Assembly: GCA_049325515.1 (NCBI GenBank)
Contig: JBMOLI010000001.1
Coordinates: 577,171 to 641,170, forward strand
Length of the DNA stretch: 64,000 nt
Source: Actinomycetota bacterium
Lineage (GTDB): Bacteria > Actinomycetota > Acidimicrobiia > Acidimicrobiales > VFJN01
Direction of reading: 5' to 3'
Shown here: piece by piece, positions 36,643-43,834 of the stretch
Layout: each line of letters begins with the position of its first letter
Numbering within the stretch: the first letter of the stretch is position 1
Position numbers and translations under genes: made by a program
Notes under the pieces: generated by a model
Database searches by the model: none
Told to the model about the DNA's origin: nothing
Seen by the model: only the letters and a program-made list of their open reading frames with translations

Positions 36643-37368
36643 TTAGCGGGCCCACTCCGCCTGCCGGCCCCCGTAGTCCCAAAGAATCGCGACCGGTTGC
36701 TGTCCCGCGGGAACGCTTAGAGTCACGTAGCCGCGCCGACAGCCGCCGCCGGCCGGGATGTCACCCGAGCTCAAGTCTGGCTCTCTGGCGGTGCCGAAGG
36801 CATCGTCGTACACCCTGTTGTCCGCCATACGTGCCGATAGTGCCAGCGAGTTGTAGGCGGCTTCTTCCTGACCCCCAGCGCATACCTCGACATCAAGCAC
36901 GCCGTACTCGAATCCTGGGTCAGGGGTGCTGTACTCGTTTGCCGGAGGCACCGGTTGCTCCCAGGTGAACACCTGGACGGAGCTTCCGTCCACGTACTCG
37001 ATCTTCTCACCCACGGTGTATCTGGGTTTGGTCGTGGTCGTGGTGGTCGGTCTTGTCGTCGTTGTTCGCTCCGCGGTGGTTGTCGTCTGTGCGGTGCTCT
37101 GTTGTCTCTCGGTAGTTGCAGATGTGGCAGCCGTTTCGCCGTTGTCCTTCGCAGGCTCTGCAGCGGACGCAGCACCGAGGGCGACGCCTGCAACCCCAGC
37201 GAGGATGAGGGTCCAAAGTGGTACGCGCCTCCTCCACCACGGCATCGGCCCATCTCCTGAAGCAGCCGGGTCCGGCACCGGCGACGGGCCCGGCTCCGCC
37301 GGGCGAGGCGGATACCACTTCCCGTCGCTGGCCAGCCACCAGCCCGGACCACCACTCTGGTCGCTCAT
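36643..37368 (-). CDS. Type II membrane protein: N-terminal WW-ASDG-WYPP motif, TM, Thr-rich linker, DUF4352-like extracellular domain
   Basis: 241 aa, ATG preceded by GGAG. MSDQSGGPGWWLASDGKWYPP, RRR + TM (LWTLILAGVAGVALGAASAA), TTTTAERTTTTRPTTTTTTKP. The C-terminal block (VGEKIEYVDG..., GVLDVEVCAGG, RGYVTLSVPAG) looks DUF4352-like. Confidence 0.75.
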   Translation of the reverse strand: MSDQSGGPGWWLASDGKWYPPRPAEPGPSPVPDPAASGDGPMPWWRRRVPLWTLILAGVAGVALGAASAAEPAKDNGETAATSATTERQQSTAQTTTTAERTTTTRPTTTTTTKPRYTVGEKIEYVDGSSVQVFTWEQPVPPANEYSTPDPGFEYGVLDVEVCAGGQEEAAYNSLALSARMADNRVYDDAFGTAREPDLSSGDIPAGGGCRRGYVTLSVPAGQQPVAILWDYGGRQAEWAR

Positions 37369-37485
37369 CTGATCTCCGCCCCTTAGCTCCCAGCCAACCT
37401 ACCCTCAGGACCACTGAACAGCTGAGCCGCGCCACAGTAGACCCGGCGTGCGGACCCGGGGCACCACGAGGAGGTCCGAAACGGG

Positions 37486-38280
37486 TCAGCAGATGCCGGT
37501 GGACTGAGCCCCGTAGCGGGCCTGCTCCGGGGTGAACTGACTGCCGTACTCCGAGGACAGCTGGTCGATCAGACCCTGGCACGAGAACGAAGAGAACTCG
37601 AGGTAGTCCTTGGCCGCACCGGCGGCCTGTTCGTTCCAGTCCGGACTGAGATAGTCCACGGCGAACGTGGCATCCGCGACGGAGAACTGGTCGCCGTACT
37701 CCGACGACAACTGGTCGATCAGGCCCTGCCGCGAGAAGTGAGTGAACGCGAGGTAGTCCTCGGCGGCGCCGACGGCTTGCGCCTGGCTGGGACTCATGGA
37801 GGGGGCGGCCTCGGTGGTGGTCGTCGTGGGGGCCGCGGTCGTGGTCGTCGGCCGTTGCGTCGTCGTGGTCGTCGCCTTCCGGGTCGTGGTTGTCTCCACC
37901 AACGCCTCCTCGGACTGGCCACCGTTCGAGCTGGCGGGCTTCGTCTCGTCCATGCTCGCAAGTGGAGCCATCACAGCCACCAGCACTACGAACGCCGCGG
38001 CGATCTGACCCCAGAGCGGCCAGGCTCGGTACCTCCCCCACACCCGCGCTGGCAGACCGAGCTCAGGCCGGGTCGGCGCCTTGGGGGCCGGCGGCGGGGC
38101 CGATGCAACAGCGCGTTCCGGCGGATACCACTTGCCATCGCTCGCGAGCCACCAACCGGGCGCAGGGGGGCGTTCACCAGGGGGCGCTAGGTACTCGGGC
38201 GGTGTCCAGGCCGATTCCGGCGGGTACCACTTCCCGTCACTGGCGATCCACCAGTCCGGGCCTTGACTGTGATCACTCAT
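37486..38280 (-). CDS. Type II membrane protein: 2x WW-ASDG-WYPP motif, TM, Thr-rich linker, 2x Ltp-like (host cell surface-exposed lipoprotein, PF07553-type) repeats
   Basis: Internal ATG (residue 142 of track ORF 37486..38703) preceded by GGGAGGGAGAG. PDWWIASDGKWYPPE and PGWWLASDGKWYPPE. Two repeats of A..DYL.F..FS.QGLIDQLSSEYG.QF match my recollection of the Ltp family. Confidence 0.8.
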   Translation of the reverse strand: MSDHSQGPDWWIASDGKWYPPESAWTPPEYLAPPGERPPAPGWWLASDGKWYPPERAVASAPPPAPKAPTRPELGLPARVWGRYRAWPLWGQIAAAFVVLVAVMAPLASMDETKPASSNGGQSEEALVETTTTRKATTTTTQRPTTTTAAPTTTTTEAAPSMSPSQAQAVGAAEDYLAFTHFSRQGLIDQLSSEYGDQFSVADATFAVDYLSPDWNEQAAGAAKDYLEFSSFSCQGLIDQLSSEYGSQFTPEQARYGAQSTGIC

Positions 38281-38489
38281 CTCTCCCTCCCTGGATTGGC
38301 GGGACCCTAACTGCGAAACGCAACGGTTGCTGAGGGACTTGAGGCGTGACTGGCAAGGACTGTGCGTCAGGGCAGGCAGAGGAGAAGTCGACAGCCGTTC
38401 GCAGGGCAGGTCGTGATTCGGTTCGCGCCAGCGGCTAGGAGCGCTACGACGTGCTCTACTTTCCATGGCTACGGAGTAGGGGGGCGGCC

Positions 38490-39251
38490 GTGAGCGAGGA
38501 GAGTAGGGGCCCCGGGTGGTGGCTCGCGAGCGATGGCAGGTGGTACCCGCCCGAGCGGCATCCCAACTACCGAGGCCAGAGCACACCGAGCGCGCCACCG
38601 CCACCGAGCGCGCCACCGCCACCGAGCGCGCCACCGCCACCGAGCGCGCCACCGCCACCGAGCGCGCCACCGCCACCGAGCGCGCCACCCCGCGCTTCCG
38701 CAATTCCCCATGGCGCTGCCAACGCGAGGTCGGCCAACACGTCTGCTGCGCCTCGCAAGGTCAGGACTCGGATCCTTATGGCGACGGCCCTCACAGCCGC
38801 TCTTGTCGCTGTGTTTGTGTCGTACGAATTGGGCAGCACATCGCAGGACACGACCACGACAGGGGTAACCAGCCCATTATCGAACCGGCAGTTGAGTGCC
38901 GCCTGGCAGGACGCGCTGGACAACCTCACAGGCGAGCTACGTGCAGCAGGCTTCCCGAACCCTCGAGACGACTCCTACACATCGACCGGTACCGAGGATT
39001 CTGTGCGCGACCTCATGGCGTCGTACCTAAGACCAGAGACTGGCTACCGGAAGCAGCTTCTGGAGTATTACGACCAGACGGAAGGCCGTCTGGCTGACCT
39101 GGACCCTCAATTGCGCGGCCAAATCGCCAAGGCCGACTCTCCGGATGAGATGTGGGCCCTAGTCTTCGAAATCACGGGCCGAGTGGTCCAGCCCCTGAAG
39201 AGCGTCGTCCCGACGACCACCTCCACTGTCGAAACTGCAGGCAGTACATAG
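38490..39251 (+). CDS. Type II membrane protein: WW-ASDG-WYPP motif, (SAPPPP)n repeat, TM, unknown extracellular domain
   Basis: I prefer the in-frame GTG at 38490 (VSEESRGPGWWLASDGRWYPPE), by analogy with the two paralogous N-termini. The track ORF starts at 38451. TM is ILMATALTAALVAVFVSY. I do not recognise the C-terminal 150 aa. Confidence 0.7.
   Translation: MSEESRGPGWWLASDGRWYPPERHPNYRGQSTPSAPPPPSAPPPPSAPPPPSAPPPPSAPPPPSAPPRASAIPHGAANARSANTSAAPRKVRTRILMATALTAALVAVFVSYELGSTSQDTTTTGVTSPLSNRQLSAAWQDALDNLTGELRAAGFPNPRDDSYTSTGTEDSVRDLMASYLRPETGYRKQLLEYYDQTEGRLADLDPQLRGQIAKADSPDEMWALVFEITGRVVQPLKSVVPTTTSTVETAGST
38586..38690 (+). repeat. Perfect 18-bp tandem repeat (CCGAGCGCGCCACCGCCA), 5 full copies + 15-nt partial, in-frame (SAPPPP)n
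   Basis: Read directly. Five identical units occupy 38586-38675, then CCGAGCGCGCCACCC. The repeat lies inside CDS 38490..39251. Confidence 0.95.
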
Positions 39252-39680: not shown

Positions 39681-39704
39681 ACCTGAGGCTTCTTGGTGGG
39701 CCGT
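39681..39704. repeat. Right copy of the 24-bp direct repeat (overlaps the tRNA-Val 3' end)
   Basis: ACCTGAGGCTTCTTGGTGGGCCGT. The last 11 nt (39694-39704) are the 3' end of the tRNA, including the encoded CCA. Confidence 0.85.
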
Positions 39705-39770
39705 AAGGGACTCGAACCCCTGACCCCCTGCGCGTCATGCAGGTGCTCTAGCCAACTGAGCTAACGGCCC
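39694..39770 (-). tRNA. tRNA-Val (anticodon GAC), CCA encoded
   Basis: Manual fold of the reverse strand: GGGCCGT-TA-GCTC-AGTTGGCTA-GAGC-A-CCTGC-ATGACGC-GCAGG-GGGTC-AGGGG-TTCGAGT-CCCTT-ACGGCCC-A-CCA. All four stems pair, and there is a T-loop TTCGAGT. Total 77 nt. Confidence 0.88.
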
Positions 39771-39796: not shown

Positions 39797-40729
39797 TCAT
39801 CTGACGGCCGAACTCGATGGAGTCGCGACCCGGTTGGTCAGGCTGCCGATCCCCTCGACGGCAAGCGTCACCTCATCACCCGCCTGCAGCCACGGGTAGC
39901 GATCACGACCGTGGACCGGGCCCAGCTCGAGGATGCAGCCGCTGCCGACGGTGCCGGAGCCGATGACGTCGCCGGGGCGCAGCACGGTCGACCGCGATGC
40001 GTGGGCCAGAAGGCGGCCCCATCCATGGTGCATGTCGCCCAGCTCGCCTCGGCTCCACTCCTGCCCGTTCACCGAAGCTGTCATCACGCCTCGAGCCACG
40101 CCGTCGCCTCCGACCAGCTCGTCAGGGGTCACGAGCATGGGCCCGAGAGAGGTCGCGAAGTCCTTGCCCTTGGAGGGGCCCAACCCCAGTGCCATCTCGC
40201 GCCTCTGCAGGTCGCGGGCCGACCAGTCGTTCATCACGGTGAACCCGGCGACCACGTCGAGCCACTCGCGCTCGTCCAGGTCGGCGCACTCGACGCCGAC
40301 CACCGCGGCCACCTCGAGCTCGTAGTCGAGCTCGGAGGTCGCCGGTGGGTGCAGCGCCTCACTTGGGCCGAGCACTGCCGCCGGATTCGTGAAGTAGAAG
40401 ACGGGCAGCTCGTACCAGTCGGGCTCCATCTCGAGGCCACGGGTGCGCCTCGCCGTGGCCACATGCGCTTCGAACGCGTAGAAGTCGCGGATCGAAGGCG
40501 GCTCGGGCACGGGTGTGAGGAGAGTGACGTCGGCGATCGGCTCGGGATCGTCGCAGTCCATCGAGCCCAGATCGCGCGCCATCGCCATGGCCAGCAGCAG
40601 GGACTGGCCTTCTCGGCCAGTGCCCGATCCGAGCGAGGCCACGAGCTCCACATCGTCGCGCTCGTCGACCACCACGGCGCCAACGTGGACGTGTCCGTCG
40701 CGCCCGGACCGGTACCGAGCGAGCTTCAC
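39797..40729 (-). CDS. Fumarylacetoacetate hydrolase (FAH) family protein, short (310 aa) form
   Basis: GTG start in a GTGA overlap with the hmgA stop. FAH-fold blocks: PVFYFTNP, YELEVAAVVG, VMNDWSARDLQ, GDVIGSGTVG. Confidence 0.85.
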   Translation of the reverse strand: MKLARYRSGRDGHVHVGAVVVDERDDVELVASLGSGTGREGQSLLLAMAMARDLGSMDCDDPEPIADVTLLTPVPEPPSIRDFYAFEAHVATARRTRGLEMEPDWYELPVFYFTNPAAVLGPSEALHPPATSELDYELEVAAVVGVECADLDEREWLDVVAGFTVMNDWSARDLQRREMALGLGPSKGKDFATSLGPMLVTPDELVGGDGVARGVMTASVNGQEWSRGELGDMHHGWGRLLAHASRSTVLRPGDVIGSGTVGSGCILELGPVHGRDRYPWLQAGDEVTLAVEGIGSLTNRVATPSSSAVR

Positions 40730-41850
40730 GCGTCGGGACGCCAGGAGTGGGCGTAGCCCTCGACGTCAAGATCCTTGGCGGCCTCGCCTGGCATCAGGGC
40801 GTGGCGGCTGTCGATCATCACTGCCACCTCATCGGCCATGCGACGCTCCGCCGACGGTGCGGCAGCCGCCACCGCGTCTCTGGCCCGCGCACCGGGCTGA
40901 GGCCCGTGGTGCAAGCCGAACGGATGCCACGTCAGCATCCCCTCGGAGATGTCCGCCCGCGAGAAGAACTCTCCGCGGTGGTAGAAGATCACCTCGTCAT
41001 AGTCGACGTTGCGGTGGAAGAACGGAAGGCGGAGCGCCTCCGGGTCGTCCTCCAGCGGCCGCGGAGCGAACGTGCACACCACGAAGCCGTCGGCGACGAA
41101 TGTCGTATGAGCTGACGGGGGCAGGTGGTAGCGCGCGGATGTGACTGGGCGGATGTCGTCGACGTTGAGCCGCATCGGCGCGACGTCACCCTTCCATCCG
41201 ATGACGTCACACGGGTGGAACGGATAGGTGATGCGCGTGTCGTGACCGCCGCGCTTGACGACCACGGTGAACTCACCCTCCTCCTCCACCGCTTCGGCTT
41301 CGGGCACCTCGAGCACTGCTGGGTCGAAGAGCGCGTGACGCCCCAGCATGCCCCGGTCGGGCAGGGAGAAGCGCGACTCGTAGGCCTCGACCACCAGCAG
41401 CTCGGTGCCGGTGGCCGGCTCGAAGCGGTAGGTGGCGCCGCGGGGAACGATCAGGTAGTCGCCGGGTCGGTATCGGAGCGGCCCGTACTCGGTGCGAAGC
41501 ACTCCGGTGCCGGCGTGCACGAAGAAGAGCTGGTCACCGTCGGAGTCGCGCAGGAACTCGGGGCGCCCGCCCGCCGCCACCCGGTGCCACGCGATCGACG
41601 TCTGGTGGTTGCCGAGGAGCAGCGTCGGCCAGAGGTCGCCCTGGCCACGGAGGCGACGGGTGTCGAAGGCGCGGTGCGCGGCCGGACCCTCGACGGAGGA
41701 CCAATCAGTTGGGGCGTGAAGGCGGTAGAGATGGCTGGCTGGGCCGTAGAAGCCCGACCGTCCGTGCTCCTCCTCGACCGTGCCCGGCGGCAGGCGCACG
41801 TGGGCCTGCTGGCTGGTGACGCCTCGAACCCATTGCGGAACCCCTTCCAT
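40726..41850 (-). CDS. hmgA: Homogentisate 1,2-dioxygenase
   Basis: 374 aa. GFYGPASHLY, GDQLFFVHAGTG, YLIVPRGATYRF, PFFHRNVDYDEVIFYH, and it sits between hppD and the FAH gene. Confidence 0.88.
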   Translation of the reverse strand: MEGVPQWVRGVTSQQAHVRLPPGTVEEEHGRSGFYGPASHLYRLHAPTDWSSVEGPAAHRAFDTRRLRGQGDLWPTLLLGNHQTSIAWHRVAAGGRPEFLRDSDGDQLFFVHAGTGVLRTEYGPLRYRPGDYLIVPRGATYRFEPATGTELLVVEAYESRFSLPDRGMLGRHALFDPAVLEVPEAEAVEEEGEFTVVVKRGGHDTRITYPFHPCDVIGWKGDVAPMRLNVDDIRPVTSARYHLPPSAHTTFVADGFVVCTFAPRPLEDDPEALRLPFFHRNVDYDEVIFYHRGEFFSRADISEGMLTWHPFGLHHGPQPGARARDAVAAAAPSAERRMADEVAVMIDSRHALMPGEAAKDLDVEGYAHSWRPDA

Positions 41851-41876
41851 CGAGCTCCTCTCTCCGTGCCGTACCG

Positions 41877-43016
41877 CTACAGGTTGCCGCGCCGCTCCTG
41901 AGCCCGCTCGATCGACTCGAAGAGCGCCTTGAAGTTGCCCTCACCGAAGCCCCTGGCGCCGGCCCGCTGGATGATCTCGAAGAAGACCGTCGGGCGGTCG
42001 GTGAGCGTCTCGGTGAAGATCTGCAGCAGGTGCCCGTCGTGGTCGCGGTCGACGAGGATGCCGAGCGAGGCCAGCGTGTCCCACGGGAGCTCGACCCCGG
42101 CAAGCCGGCCGCGAGCCTCCGCGTAGTACTCGTCGGGGACATCCATGAAGCGCACGCCGCGAGCGCGCAGGGCACGCACGGTCGCGACGATGTCGTCAGT
42201 GTGCAGTGCTATGTGCTGCACACCGGGCGACCCGTAGAAGTCGAGGTACTCCTCGATCTGGCTCTTGCGTCGCCCTTCCGCCGGCTCGTTGATCGGCAGC
42301 ACGACCTTGTCGTGGTTCCAGACGACGGTCGACATGAGCGCCGAGTACTCCGTTGAGATCTGGTCGTCGGTGAAGTGCGTCAGCTGATCGAAGCCGAGGA
42401 CCTCCTCGTAGTAGCTGACCCACTCGTCGAGATGGCCGCGCTCGACGTTGGCGACCACATGGTCGAGGCGTGTGATGCCCACTGCGGGCCCGACAGGTCG
42501 CACGAGGTCGCTCTTCACGAACTGAGGAGCGAACGAACCTGAGTAGGCGGAGCGGTCTAGGAACGTGTGCACGGTCTCGCCGTAGGCGCGGATGGCCGCG
42601 TGGTAGATGCACCCGTGCTCGTCGGTGTCGGTGTCAGGCACCCGCTCGGAGCCGGCGCCGCGCAGCAGGGCGGACTCATAGGCGCCCGCCACGTCGTCGA
42701 CGAGGAAGCAGATGTCGCGGATGCCATCGCCGTGGGCCCTGACGTGGGCAGCGATCGCGCTGTCCGGGCTCAGCGCACCCGTCACCATGAAGCGCACGCC
42801 GCCCTGCTGGAGGAGGTAGCTCACGCGATCGCGCCGGCCGGTCTCGGGGCCCGCGTACGCGACGACGTCGAACCCGAATGCCGACTCGAGGAACCCGGTG
42901 AACGCGCGGGCGTTGCCGACCCACCACTCGAGATGGTCGATGCCTCGCAGCACCGGTGCGGCCGGCTGGCTGGAGGGCCGGCGTGCTTCGGCCGATGAGC
43001 GGTGAACGGCGGTCAT
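41877..43016 (-). CDS. hppD: 4-hydroxyphenylpyruvate dioxygenase
   Basis: Internal ATG (residue 70 of track ORF 41877..43223), in an ATGA overlap with the upstream stop. VLPINEPAEGRRKSQIEEYLDFYGSPGVQHIALHTDDI, GHLLQIFT, GFGEGNFKALFESIE. Confidence 0.92.
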   Translation of the reverse strand: MTAVHRSSAEARRPSSQPAAPVLRGIDHLEWWVGNARAFTGFLESAFGFDVVAYAGPETGRRDRVSYLLQQGGVRFMVTGALSPDSAIAAHVRAHGDGIRDICFLVDDVAGAYESALLRGAGSERVPDTDTDEHGCIYHAAIRAYGETVHTFLDRSAYSGSFAPQFVKSDLVRPVGPAVGITRLDHVVANVERGHLDEWVSYYEEVLGFDQLTHFTDDQISTEYSALMSTVVWNHDKVVLPINEPAEGRRKSQIEEYLDFYGSPGVQHIALHTDDIVATVRALRARGVRFMDVPDEYYAEARGRLAGVELPWDTLASLGILVDRDHDGHLLQIFTETLTDRPTVFFEIIQRAGARGFGEGNFKALFESIERAQERRGNL

Positions 43017-43834
43017 CGCTCCACCCCTGACTCGTGATCGACCCAGAGGCCGTCCCAGAAGGCCTGCACGCCGTCGAGCATGCGCGCGGCGCCACCGAGG
43101 AAGCGGTGCTCGTCGAACCACGGCTGGCAGTAGGCCTCCAGCAGCTCGTCGGCGGTGTGCTCCGCGTGCTGGTCCTCCACCTTGTCGTGCCAGGTCCAGA
43201 ACGCAAGGGGAAGGTCGGCGCACTCTCGGGCCTTGAAGGTCTCGAGGCCCGCGATCAGCTCCTTCCAGAACCCGGCCGCGGCCCAGTGCTCGACCGCATA
43301 GCTGGCGCCTTCTGCGGTGGCCGCGTCATCAGAGCCGTACACCTCCAGCAGCTCATCGCAGAAGAACAGCGTGGCCGCGGTGCCGTGGCGACGCTTGCCC
43401 AGGTCGGCGAAATCGAGGCCCAGCGGCTTGGCGAAGCGCAACAACCACTCGAAGTGGGCGGCACCGAAGCGGAACCTGCCGCCGTCGACGGTGCCCTCGG
43501 TGGCGACGAGATCGGGGTCGGTGTCGACCGCACCTGTGGACCTCGACTGGCCACGCGCGTTGAACACGACACCGAGCTCGTTGAGGAGGATCTCCTTGCC
43601 CGCCCGGTAGGTGTCGAGATCGGCAGCGTTGATGACCTTGCGAAGCTGTGCTTCGACGAACAGGTGGCTGAACACGGAGAACTGGACGGTCAGGTGCCTC
43701 ACCTCGCCGCGGGTGGCTTCACCGCCGGCGAACCAACGCGTGTACCGATTGGCTGTCACGACAGGGTGTTGCGACACGAGCGCGTCTATCCTGCTGCGAA
43801 GCGCCGTGATGTCGGGTTCGGCCGTCAGCGTCAT
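43013..43834 (-). CDS. Haem-oxygenase-like fold, iron-containing redox enzyme family protein (TenA/PqqC/Haem_oxygenas_2-like)
   Basis: 273 aa, all-helical. Contains conserved-looking His/Glu (FSVFSHLFVEAQL, AVEHWAAAGFW, HDKVEDQHAEH). First gene of the hppD operon. The family call is by eye. Confidence 0.6.
   Translation of the reverse strand: MTLTAEPDITALRSRIDALVSQHPVVTANRYTRWFAGGEATRGEVRHLTVQFSVFSHLFVEAQLRKVINAADLDTYRAGKEILLNELGVVFNARGQSRSTGAVDTDPDLVATEGTVDGGRFRFGAAHFEWLLRFAKPLGLDFADLGKRRHGTAATLFFCDELLEVYGSDDAATAEGASYAVEHWAAAGFWKELIAGLETFKARECADLPLAFWTWHDKVEDQHAEHTADELLEAYCQPWFDEHRFLGGAARMLDGVQAFWDGLWVDHESGVER

Follow-up and report, generated by a model that had tools for sequence, protein, structure and literature searches.

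Three adjacent genes of an Actinomycetota bacterium (class Acidimicrobiia), here called A, B and C, are the subject of this analysis. They lie within a stretch of 64,000 nucleotides (the window, meaning the whole of the DNA analysed; GC 66-72%), and their products carry one or two copies of the same Trp-rich 14-residue motif ahead of a single predicted transmembrane (TM) helix. The features of the three genes are listed below, where ORF stands for open reading frame, HMM for hidden Markov model, AF2 for AlphaFold2 and pLDDT for the predicted local distance difference test score.

36643-37368, (-) strand: gene A, ORF of 241 aa with N-terminal motif, Pro-rich linker, RRR, TM helix, Thr-rich stalk and DUF4352-like ectodomain
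37306-37347, (-) strand: motif copy in A, residues 8-21, PGWWLASDGKWYPP; HMM score 36.6 bits
37168-37224, (-) strand: TM helix of A, approximately residues 49-67; Kyte-Doolittle value 1.94; RRR ahead of it, three K+R upstream and one downstream
37486-38280, (-) strand: gene B, ORF of 264 aa with two motif copies, TM helix, Thr-rich stalk and two Ltp domains
38218-38259, (-) strand: motif copy 1 in B, residues 8-21, PDWWIASDGKWYPP
38119-38160, (-) strand: motif copy 2 in B, residues 41-54, PGWWLASDGKWYPP
37957-38016, (-) strand: TM helix of B, residues 89-108; from the hydrophobicity profile and as a helix in AF2 (pLDDT ~90)
38490-39251, (+) strand: gene C, ORF of 253 aa with GTG start, motif, (PPPPSA)n linker, basic patch, TM helix, short TTTT run and orphan ectodomain
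38511-38552, (+) strand: motif copy in C, residues 8-21, PGWWLASDGRWYPP; HMM score 40.4 bits
38584-38689, (+) strand: tandem repeat in C, 18 bp x 5.9, 100% matches, Tandem Repeats Finder score 212; in frame, encoding (PPPPSA)n between motif and TM helix
38772-38828, (+) strand: TM helix of C, approximately residues 95-113; Kyte-Doolittle value 1.85; five K/R in the 15 residues upstream and none downstream

The four copies stand in the three adjacent genes where a sequence-only reading of this DNA had placed them, and they conform to the pattern P[GD]WW[LI]ASDG[KR]WYPP. A degenerate DNA pattern for WWxAxDGxWYPP was matched four times in the window against 0.00 matches expected (100 shuffles), which excludes a chance origin. 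An HMM built from 272 motif instances gave the four copies 36.6-40.4 bits, and no other six-frame match in the window scored above 8.9 bits. The further statement of the sequence-only reading, that conservation extends to the nucleotides, was misleading: nine of the 14 codons show synonymous variation from copy to copy (Pro8, Gly9, Leu12, Ala13, Ser14, Asp15, Gly16, Tyr19 and Pro21), there are three non-synonymous changes (G9D, L12I and K17R), and the conservation is that of the protein. Because the synonymous variation is so spread, old purifying selection on the peptide is indicated rather than recent copying of DNA. An element acting at the RNA or DNA level is ruled out by the same variation.

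Outside the N-terminal region the three proteins diverge as had been described, their mutual similarity in BLASTP being confined to the N-terminal ~110-125 residues. Each of them has one hydrophobic segment (Kyte-Doolittle, 19-residue window), C-terminal to the motif, with three to five K/R in the 15 residues ahead of it and none or one after it, in agreement with the proposed order of motif, basic patch and single TM helix. Long Thr runs follow the TM helix in A and B, and short ones in C, also as proposed.

Three different C-terminal domains had been suggested as well, and this held, with one assignment at the borderline. The ectodomain of B matches Lipoprotein_Ltp (PF07553) twice (5e-34; 116.6 bits against a threshold of 23.2 bits), and the best Foldseek match of its AF2 model was Ltp of phage TP-J34 (4eqq; 33% identity, probability 1.00, E 1.4e-3, target-normalized template-modelling score TMt 0.54). 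In A, residues 143-226 match DUF4352 (PF11611; positions 25-108 of the 122 in the profile, E 1.6e-5) with 25.6 bits, just below the cutoff of 25.9 bits; the precomputed annotation of a shorter, 200-aa gene call for A includes PF11611. Gene C had no match in Pfam or NCBIfam, and the NCBIfam scan of A, B and C added nothing to the Pfam results. In a search of 5.8 billion proteins, the ectodomain of C (residues ~114-253) found no homologue and full-length C gave motif-level matches alone, covering 8-17% of the query, while the ectodomain of A (residues ~117-241) returned only itself (database entry P0173; handles in P denote proteins and those in L genomic loci). The lack of homologues for these two ectodomains contrasts with the conservation of the motif, predicted to be cytoplasmic, and suggests that the surface domains diversify rapidly while the handle stays fixed.

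For A, the choice of start codon would decide whether the motif is seen. Ahead of the long starts of A and B stand GGAG/GGAGG sequences that resemble Shine-Dalgarno sites (for A, GGAG lies 6-9 nt before the ATG), and the start of C at 38490 places the motif at residue 10, in agreement with the family consensus MSDxSQGPGWW. The one database entry for the ectodomain of A is the 200-aa call P0173; a start at Met42, leaving the motif out, would give a protein of that length. A Logan contig carries a call of the 241-aa form. If gene callers systematically shorten N-termini, this may help to explain why the motif escaped family curation. The 18-bp repeat in C is in frame, so that a change of copy number would alter the linker length alone, and its perfection suggests recent expansion or slippage. 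A promoter and terminator scan found nothing that exceeded the shuffle expectation.

A motif family outside Pfam and NCBIfam

The profile scan that the sequence-only reading had proposed was carried out with HMMER as an exhaustive search of 1.84 billion cluster representatives (clusters at 50% identity), using a profile of four sequences. It retrieved 2527 proteins at E<=1e-3 and 166 at E<=1e-10, many of them with 2-7 matched stretches and with varied partner domains. The family consensus is MSDxSQGPGWW[LQ]ASDG[KRN]WYPPE, and a logo of 312 instances from the best 150 of the 2527 proteins reads P-G-W-W-[LQIV]-A-S-D-G-[KRN]-W-Y-P-P-[EQ], in which W3, D8 and G9 are invariant and W4, A6, W11, Y12 and P14 are kept at 97-99.7%. 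The motif usually lies ~10 residues from the N-terminus, its first W being residue 10 in most proteins. Copies are often in tandem, most commonly with a spacing of 22 residues; among the motif ORFs found in genomes, 113 of 126 are single-copy. This and all other genome-scan figures (loci, ORFs, partner counts) apply among the matches listed, with the lineage taken from the record title.

No model in Pfam (2025 copy) or NCBIfam (2026) covers the motif in A, B, C or their isolated N-terminal peptides, even at E<=10, and no Pfam family covers it in the best 150 family proteins; P0004, which has five copies, matched no Pfam family at all. A sequence search of the PDB with the motif gave nothing significant, the literature searched gave no paper for the motif strings or 'DUF2510' and nothing relevant on DUF4190, RDD and GYF, and the database names of family members are 'hypothetical protein' or 'RDD family' alone. 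A word-indexed profile search with a 40-aa motif alignment yielded three short proteins from five candidates, the index being unsuited to short queries. The earlier statement that no characterised function can be named for the motif is therefore upheld by the libraries, the PDB and the literature on the motif strings. The motif is the core of a small Trp-rich module that is absent from Pfam and NCBIfam and comprises at least 2527 clusters at 50% identity. The PDB search also showed an SH3-derived look-alike, 'GDGWWIAKD' (E=1.8), taken as a lead only.

The AF2 models of B and of the three-copy array P0010 suggest how the module may fold. In full-length B (37-sequence alignment), residues 1-20 are modelled with pLDDT 93-94, with beta bridges of W11-I12 with W18-Y19 and an extra bridge at Ser2, and in copy 2 the strands 44-45 and 51-52 are paired (pLDDT ~87). 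The array appears as three separate hairpins without mutual packing (pLDDT ~72; predicted template-modelling score, pTM, 0.26). From these two models, the module is predicted to form two-stranded beta-hairpins around an A-S-D-G-K loop, arranged like beads on a string.

The partners of the motif are diverse. Among 102 genome ORFs, DUF4190 was found in 21, RDD in seven, SHOCT in three, and DUF4234 and DUF7847 in two each, with singletons including Ltp, DUF4352, fn3, PQQ_2, SNase, Zn_peptidase, Septum_form and a Zn ribbon. In the top 150 proteins the partners are SHOCT, DUF4190, DUF4328, PQQ_2, RDD, DUF2510, TM2, DUF4352, Zn ribbons and DUF805. Over both sets, more than 30 different partner Pfam families were counted. 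In Pfam architectures the same repertoire stands behind DUF2510, GYF_2 and N-terminal Zn ribbons. One protein, encoded at L025, resembles B, with motif, TM helix, Thr stalk and three Ltp repeats.

Two adjacent paralogues in a metagenome-assembled genome (MAG) of Acidimicrobiaceae (L031; 2038-3195 and 3320-5050, both on the (+) strand) are 92% identical over their first 86 residues, which comprise motif, linker and basic patch; beyond residue 86 the ectodomains are unrelated, one of them having Cys-rich repeats. This pair provides direct evidence of ectodomain exchange on a common N-terminal cassette, and, judged from the sequences, the exchange looks like a cassette-style event at the TM boundary. 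The sequence-only reading had proposed a common cytoplasmic handle fused to interchangeable modules; the number of partner families, these paralogues and the position of the motif ahead of the first TM helix (TM1) all support it.

Further architectures are without a TM helix. Four proteins of 426-561 aa (P0004, which is L124:8001-9341, P0005, P0012 and P0013) carry five GWW hairpins in long, Pro-rich, apparently disordered sequence, and share a conserved N-terminus, 'MAELHGWQxDPFGVHEQRYFSQGQPTKLVRD', that is DUF2510-like by eye and has no Pfam match. They could be soluble multivalent scaffolds; the neighbourhood of P0004 was uninformative. A well-conserved subfamily (L045, L049 and L074 of Microthrixaceae, and P0020-P0130) has exactly three hairpins at positions 10, 32 and 54, that is, with 22-residue spacing, followed by a conserved soluble region with a weak C-terminal SHOCT match.

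The side of the membrane on which the motif lies was assessed from its position, from charge and from TM-less fusions. Every copy is ahead of TM1 in 79 of 79 complete ORFs with a predicted TM helix in the genome scan, as is the motif in 85 of the 87 TM proteins among the top-150 representatives. In 163 TM-containing members, K+R flanking TM1 average 2.47 on the N-side versus 1.42 on the C-side, the N-side being higher in 100 and lower in 37 (Wilcoxon p=1.5e-7). The linker from the last motif to TM1 has a median of 54 residues (range 7-351) and contains 24% Pro versus 11% overall. TM-less proteins with an N-terminal motif include a MoxR AAA+ ATPase (AAA_3; L110), an AIM24 protein (L121) and an LPG_synthase_C protein (L081). 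These three families work in the cytoplasm; Ltp is extracellular. Because the motif precedes TM1, the charge bias is positive-inside, the TM-less fusions are cytoplasmic, Ltp is extracellular and Thr-rich stalks follow the helix, the analysis indirectly supports A, B and C as type-II (N-in/C-out) single-pass proteins with a cytoplasmic motif, the topology that had been predicted from the window alone.

Genomic distribution and surroundings

The degenerate pattern was found in more than 120 genomic stretches, approximately 98 of which belong to Acidimicrobiia (Acidimicrobiales, Acidimicrobiaceae, Microthrixaceae, Iamiaceae, Ilumatobacter and Rhabdothermincola). A few carriers are other or unspecified Actinomycetota, for example Mycobacterium sp. 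E3198, Nocardioidaceae and Pseudonocardiaceae. Since several single MAGs gave three or four separate loci each, the motif genes are multi-copy and dispersed within a genome. Another gene of the window showed 72% DNA identity to an Iamiaceae MAG, which, together with the GC content and the distribution of the motif, makes an origin of the window in Acidimicrobiia probable.

The three genes are flanked on one side by genes for an FAD oxidoreductase, an alpha/beta hydrolase and an LCM methyltransferase, and on the other by a tRNA-Val and the homogentisate pathway. The features on the latter side are as follows.

39694-39770, (-) strand: tRNA-Val(gac), 443 bp downstream of gene C; confirmed by Rfam at the gathering threshold as 39697-39770
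39797-43223, (-) strand: homogentisate (tyrosine catabolism) cluster, with contiguous genes for FAA hydrolase, homogentisate 1,2-dioxygenase (HgmA) and a 4-hydroxyphenylpyruvate-dioxygenase-like protein (HPPD)
40582-40679, (-) strand: ARAGORN call 'tRNA-Thr(cgt)', 98 nt, inside the FAA-hydrolase ORF; not confirmed by Rfam and probably a false positive

The scan of flanking genes recognised none of phage or mobile-element type, and no integrase was seen in the window flanks. The pattern occurs in just two of 2.9 million viral contigs. The association with prophages or islands that the sequence-only reading had raised for checking is rejected on the basis of the housekeeping flanks and of this viral count.

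In an Acidimicrobiales MAG (L058), a tRNA-Val that is 96% identical (2-78) adjoins another motif gene (122-1528, 468 aa); the occurrence of tRNA-Val beside motif genes twice may be coincidence or a recombination hot spot. Canonical DUF2510-type genes (GWYPDP...RWWDGxxW) lie 0.1-0.9 kb from GWW-motif genes at five of the 120 listed loci (L029, L041, L048, L115 and L123). This proximity is not clearly above the expectation from the density of such genes, and it echoes the three-gene clustering in the window.

Possible roles of the hairpin

With a little better than even confidence, the motif is interpreted as a small, independently folding, Trp-rich beta-hairpin that acts as a promiscuous cytoplasmic interaction handle expanded in Acidimicrobiia, an interpretation drawn from sequence and predicted structure. 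The hairpin would be a specific protein-protein interaction handle through which numerous membrane and soluble proteins, otherwise unrelated, meet one conserved partner in the cytoplasm. Avidity would come from tandem copies, and the Pro-rich linker would serve as a flexible tether to the TM anchor or soluble domain. The hairpin would not be catalytic; in protein architecture it would take the place that DUF2510 and Zn-ribbon modules have in front of DUF4190, RDD and SHOCT. A specific partner with which the hairpin co-evolved, rather than generic hydrophobic stickiness, appears indicated because the exposed residues, including Ala and Ser, are near-invariant across unrelated proteins.

Several points weigh against an interaction handle. 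Hydrophobicity and charge heuristics, rather than experiments, underlie the TM and topology assignments; the AF2 confidence for the tandem array is moderate; and the PDB holds no solved structure of, or significant match to, the motif. Furthermore, ORF clustering of the 120 listed loci revealed no conserved neighbour and identified no partner: the largest non-motif cluster occurs in 11 loci, and because no neighbour family is common to more than these, there is no conserved operon partner. In addition, the strict conservation could come partly from the folding needs of so small a hairpin.

The main rival is a membrane-interface anchor, in which the Trp/Tyr hairpin would enter the interface of the cytoplasmic leaflet, tether soluble enzymes and fold the N-termini of TM proteins back, with avidity from tandem copies. 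The composition of the motif (three Trp, one Tyr and one Leu per 14 residues) and a Wimley-White interfacial sum of approximately -3 kcal/mol per motif speak for such a role, as do the absence of a conserved protein-partner gene from the 120 listed loci and the TM-less partners, which include LPG_synthase_C, a lipid-modifying family that needs membrane access, as well as AIM24 and MoxR. However, exchange among W, F, Y and L would be expected of an anchor, yet at three positions 306-312 of the 312 instances retain W, with Ala, Asp, Gly and Pro near-invariant as well. The motif moreover contains Asp and Lys with a flanking Glu and sits in acidic, Pro-rich linkers, and an anchor would be redundant because most carriers already hold TM helices. 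We regard this role as possible but unlikely. The other rivals, a divergent DUF2510, a sorting tag and a wall-binding repeat, are weaker.

The motif might instead be a divergent, truncated DUF2510 or WW-like subfamily and thus effectively catalogued already. It shares with DUF2510 its slot and partners (DUF4190, RDD, SHOCT and Zn ribbons) and a 'GWYP[PD]P' signature, the two occur together in P0142, and DUF2510-like genes neighbour motif genes at the five loci given above. However, the DUF2510 HMM (gathering score 24 bits) misses every motif copy at E<=10, including those of A, B, C and their isolated N-terminal peptides, yet detects the canonical domain in P0142, which serves as a control (residues 85-112, 33.2 bits, with two motif copies missed upstream). 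The comparison by hhalign of the motif profile with six DUF2510 sequences gave a probability of 4.4%, a regular expression for the signature GW[YF]xDP...[RK][YF]WDGxxW[TS] found none in the window, and the motif has no WDGxxW third strand, AF2 predicting two strands alone. Membership of this family is distinctly doubtful, and the earlier judgement that the motif resembles DUF2510 without being identical to it is borne out.

A more far-reaching and improbable idea is that the hairpin would be a natural, autonomously folding tryptophan-zipper mini-domain that binds the Pro-rich linkers of its own family in polyproline II (PPII) conformation, giving a multivalent network or condensate on the cytoplasmic membrane face that clusters unrelated surface proteins. 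If this were true, the network of single-hairpin membrane proteins and multi-hairpin soluble ones (such as P0004 and P0012, each with five hairpins) would be a minimal bacterial analogue of eukaryotic WW/SH3-proline-rich scaffolding.

It is also quite improbable that the motif is a short linear tag read by a dedicated enzyme or machine for sorting, processing, modification or degradation. Its fixed, extremely N-terminal position and its near-invariance across unrelated proteins of one lineage are what known sorting signals display. Nevertheless, tandem or internal copies are common (up to seven per protein), the linker to the TM helix varies from 7 to 351 residues, the motif is present on soluble cytoplasmic and membrane proteins alike, a folded hairpin is predicted with high confidence, and no conserved adjacent processing gene was found in the 120 listed loci. 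Finally, an extracytoplasmic wall-binding repeat like CW_binding_1, suggested by sequence resemblance and the 22-residue tandem period, is hardly credible, given that the motif has no Pfam CW_binding_1 match, no signal peptide was seen on reading the N-termini of A, B and C, the motif precedes TM1 with a positive-inside bias, it is fused to a TM-less ATPase, the ectodomains (Ltp, DUF4352 and Thr stalk) lie across the TM helix from it, and AF2 shows no solenoid packing.

For the interaction handle, the motif offers a concrete bait for a cytoplasmic partner that would link unrelated membrane proteins of Acidimicrobiia. It occurs in thousands of proteins of an actinobacterial class that is mostly uncultured, has been little studied and includes Microthrix of activated sludge. 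Domain libraries are blind to the motif; defining the family would improve annotation. The module may also be of use to protein biophysics as a natural minimal Trp-rich hairpin. In the three genes of the window, a single N-terminal cassette is seen with swappable ectodomains, and one of these ectodomains resembles the phage-exclusion domain Ltp.

Comparison with known families

CW_binding_1 (PF01473) comprises choline-binding repeats, GWxKxNGKWYY, which are aromatic hairpins of ~20 residues that form an extracellular solenoid and bind teichoic-acid choline. The likeness to the motif lies in aromatic GW...G.WYY hairpins in tandem arrays. In contrast, the motif is predicted to be cytoplasmic, its copies are split by Pro/acidic spacers, and no packing between hairpins is predicted (AF2, pTM 0.26); the CW_binding_1 HMM did not match it.

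The ectodomain of B is comparable to Ltp of phage TP-J34 (PF07553, 4eqq) in its two Ltp repeats, 33% identity and surface-exposed domain. TP-J34 Ltp is a superinfection-exclusion lipoprotein anchored via an N-terminal signal peptide and a lipobox Cys. No N-terminal signal or lipobox was found in the B sequence, whose sole hydrophobic segment (residues 89-108) follows both motif copies. B thus differs in its internal TM anchor and its hairpin-bearing, predicted cytoplasmic N-terminus, and in being encoded on the chromosome among housekeeping genes and not in a prophage.

WW domains (PF00397; for example, loop 1 of FBP28, 'TADGKTYYY') and the designed trpzip2, SWTWENGKWTWK, have Trp-flanked strands and an [AS/N]-[DN]-G-K turn. 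WW domains are eukaryotic promiscuous cytoplasmic adaptors for Pro-rich peptides, and tryptophan zippers are synthetic. The motif shares with them Trp-flanked strands around such a turn, cross-strand aromatic pairs and Pro near Trp, and resembles strands 1-2 and loop 1 of WW, a likeness taken as a lead only. Unlike WW, it lacks a third strand as well as a second conserved Trp 20-22 residues further on; there was no Pfam WW match, AF2 gave two short strands per motif, and the SH3 HMM did not match the motif.

The closest counterpart in kind is DUF2510 (PF10708), a short Trp-rich module of unknown function in Actinomycetota that is usually N-terminal, ahead of small membrane domains or single TM helices, or of DUF4190, RDD and similar domains. 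The motif takes the same slot in its position before TM1 and in its partners, and hhalign pairs only its DG.WYPP with the GWYP-type signature aGWYPDP. The two differ in extent, DUF2510 having ~35 residues with a third element, RYWDGxxWT, whereas the motif is a two-strand hairpin of 14-16 residues that ends in WYPPE. Modules of this kind are already familiar, DUF2510 being one: small, aromatic, N-terminal and fused to a variety of membrane proteins in actinobacteria. The family itself is new.

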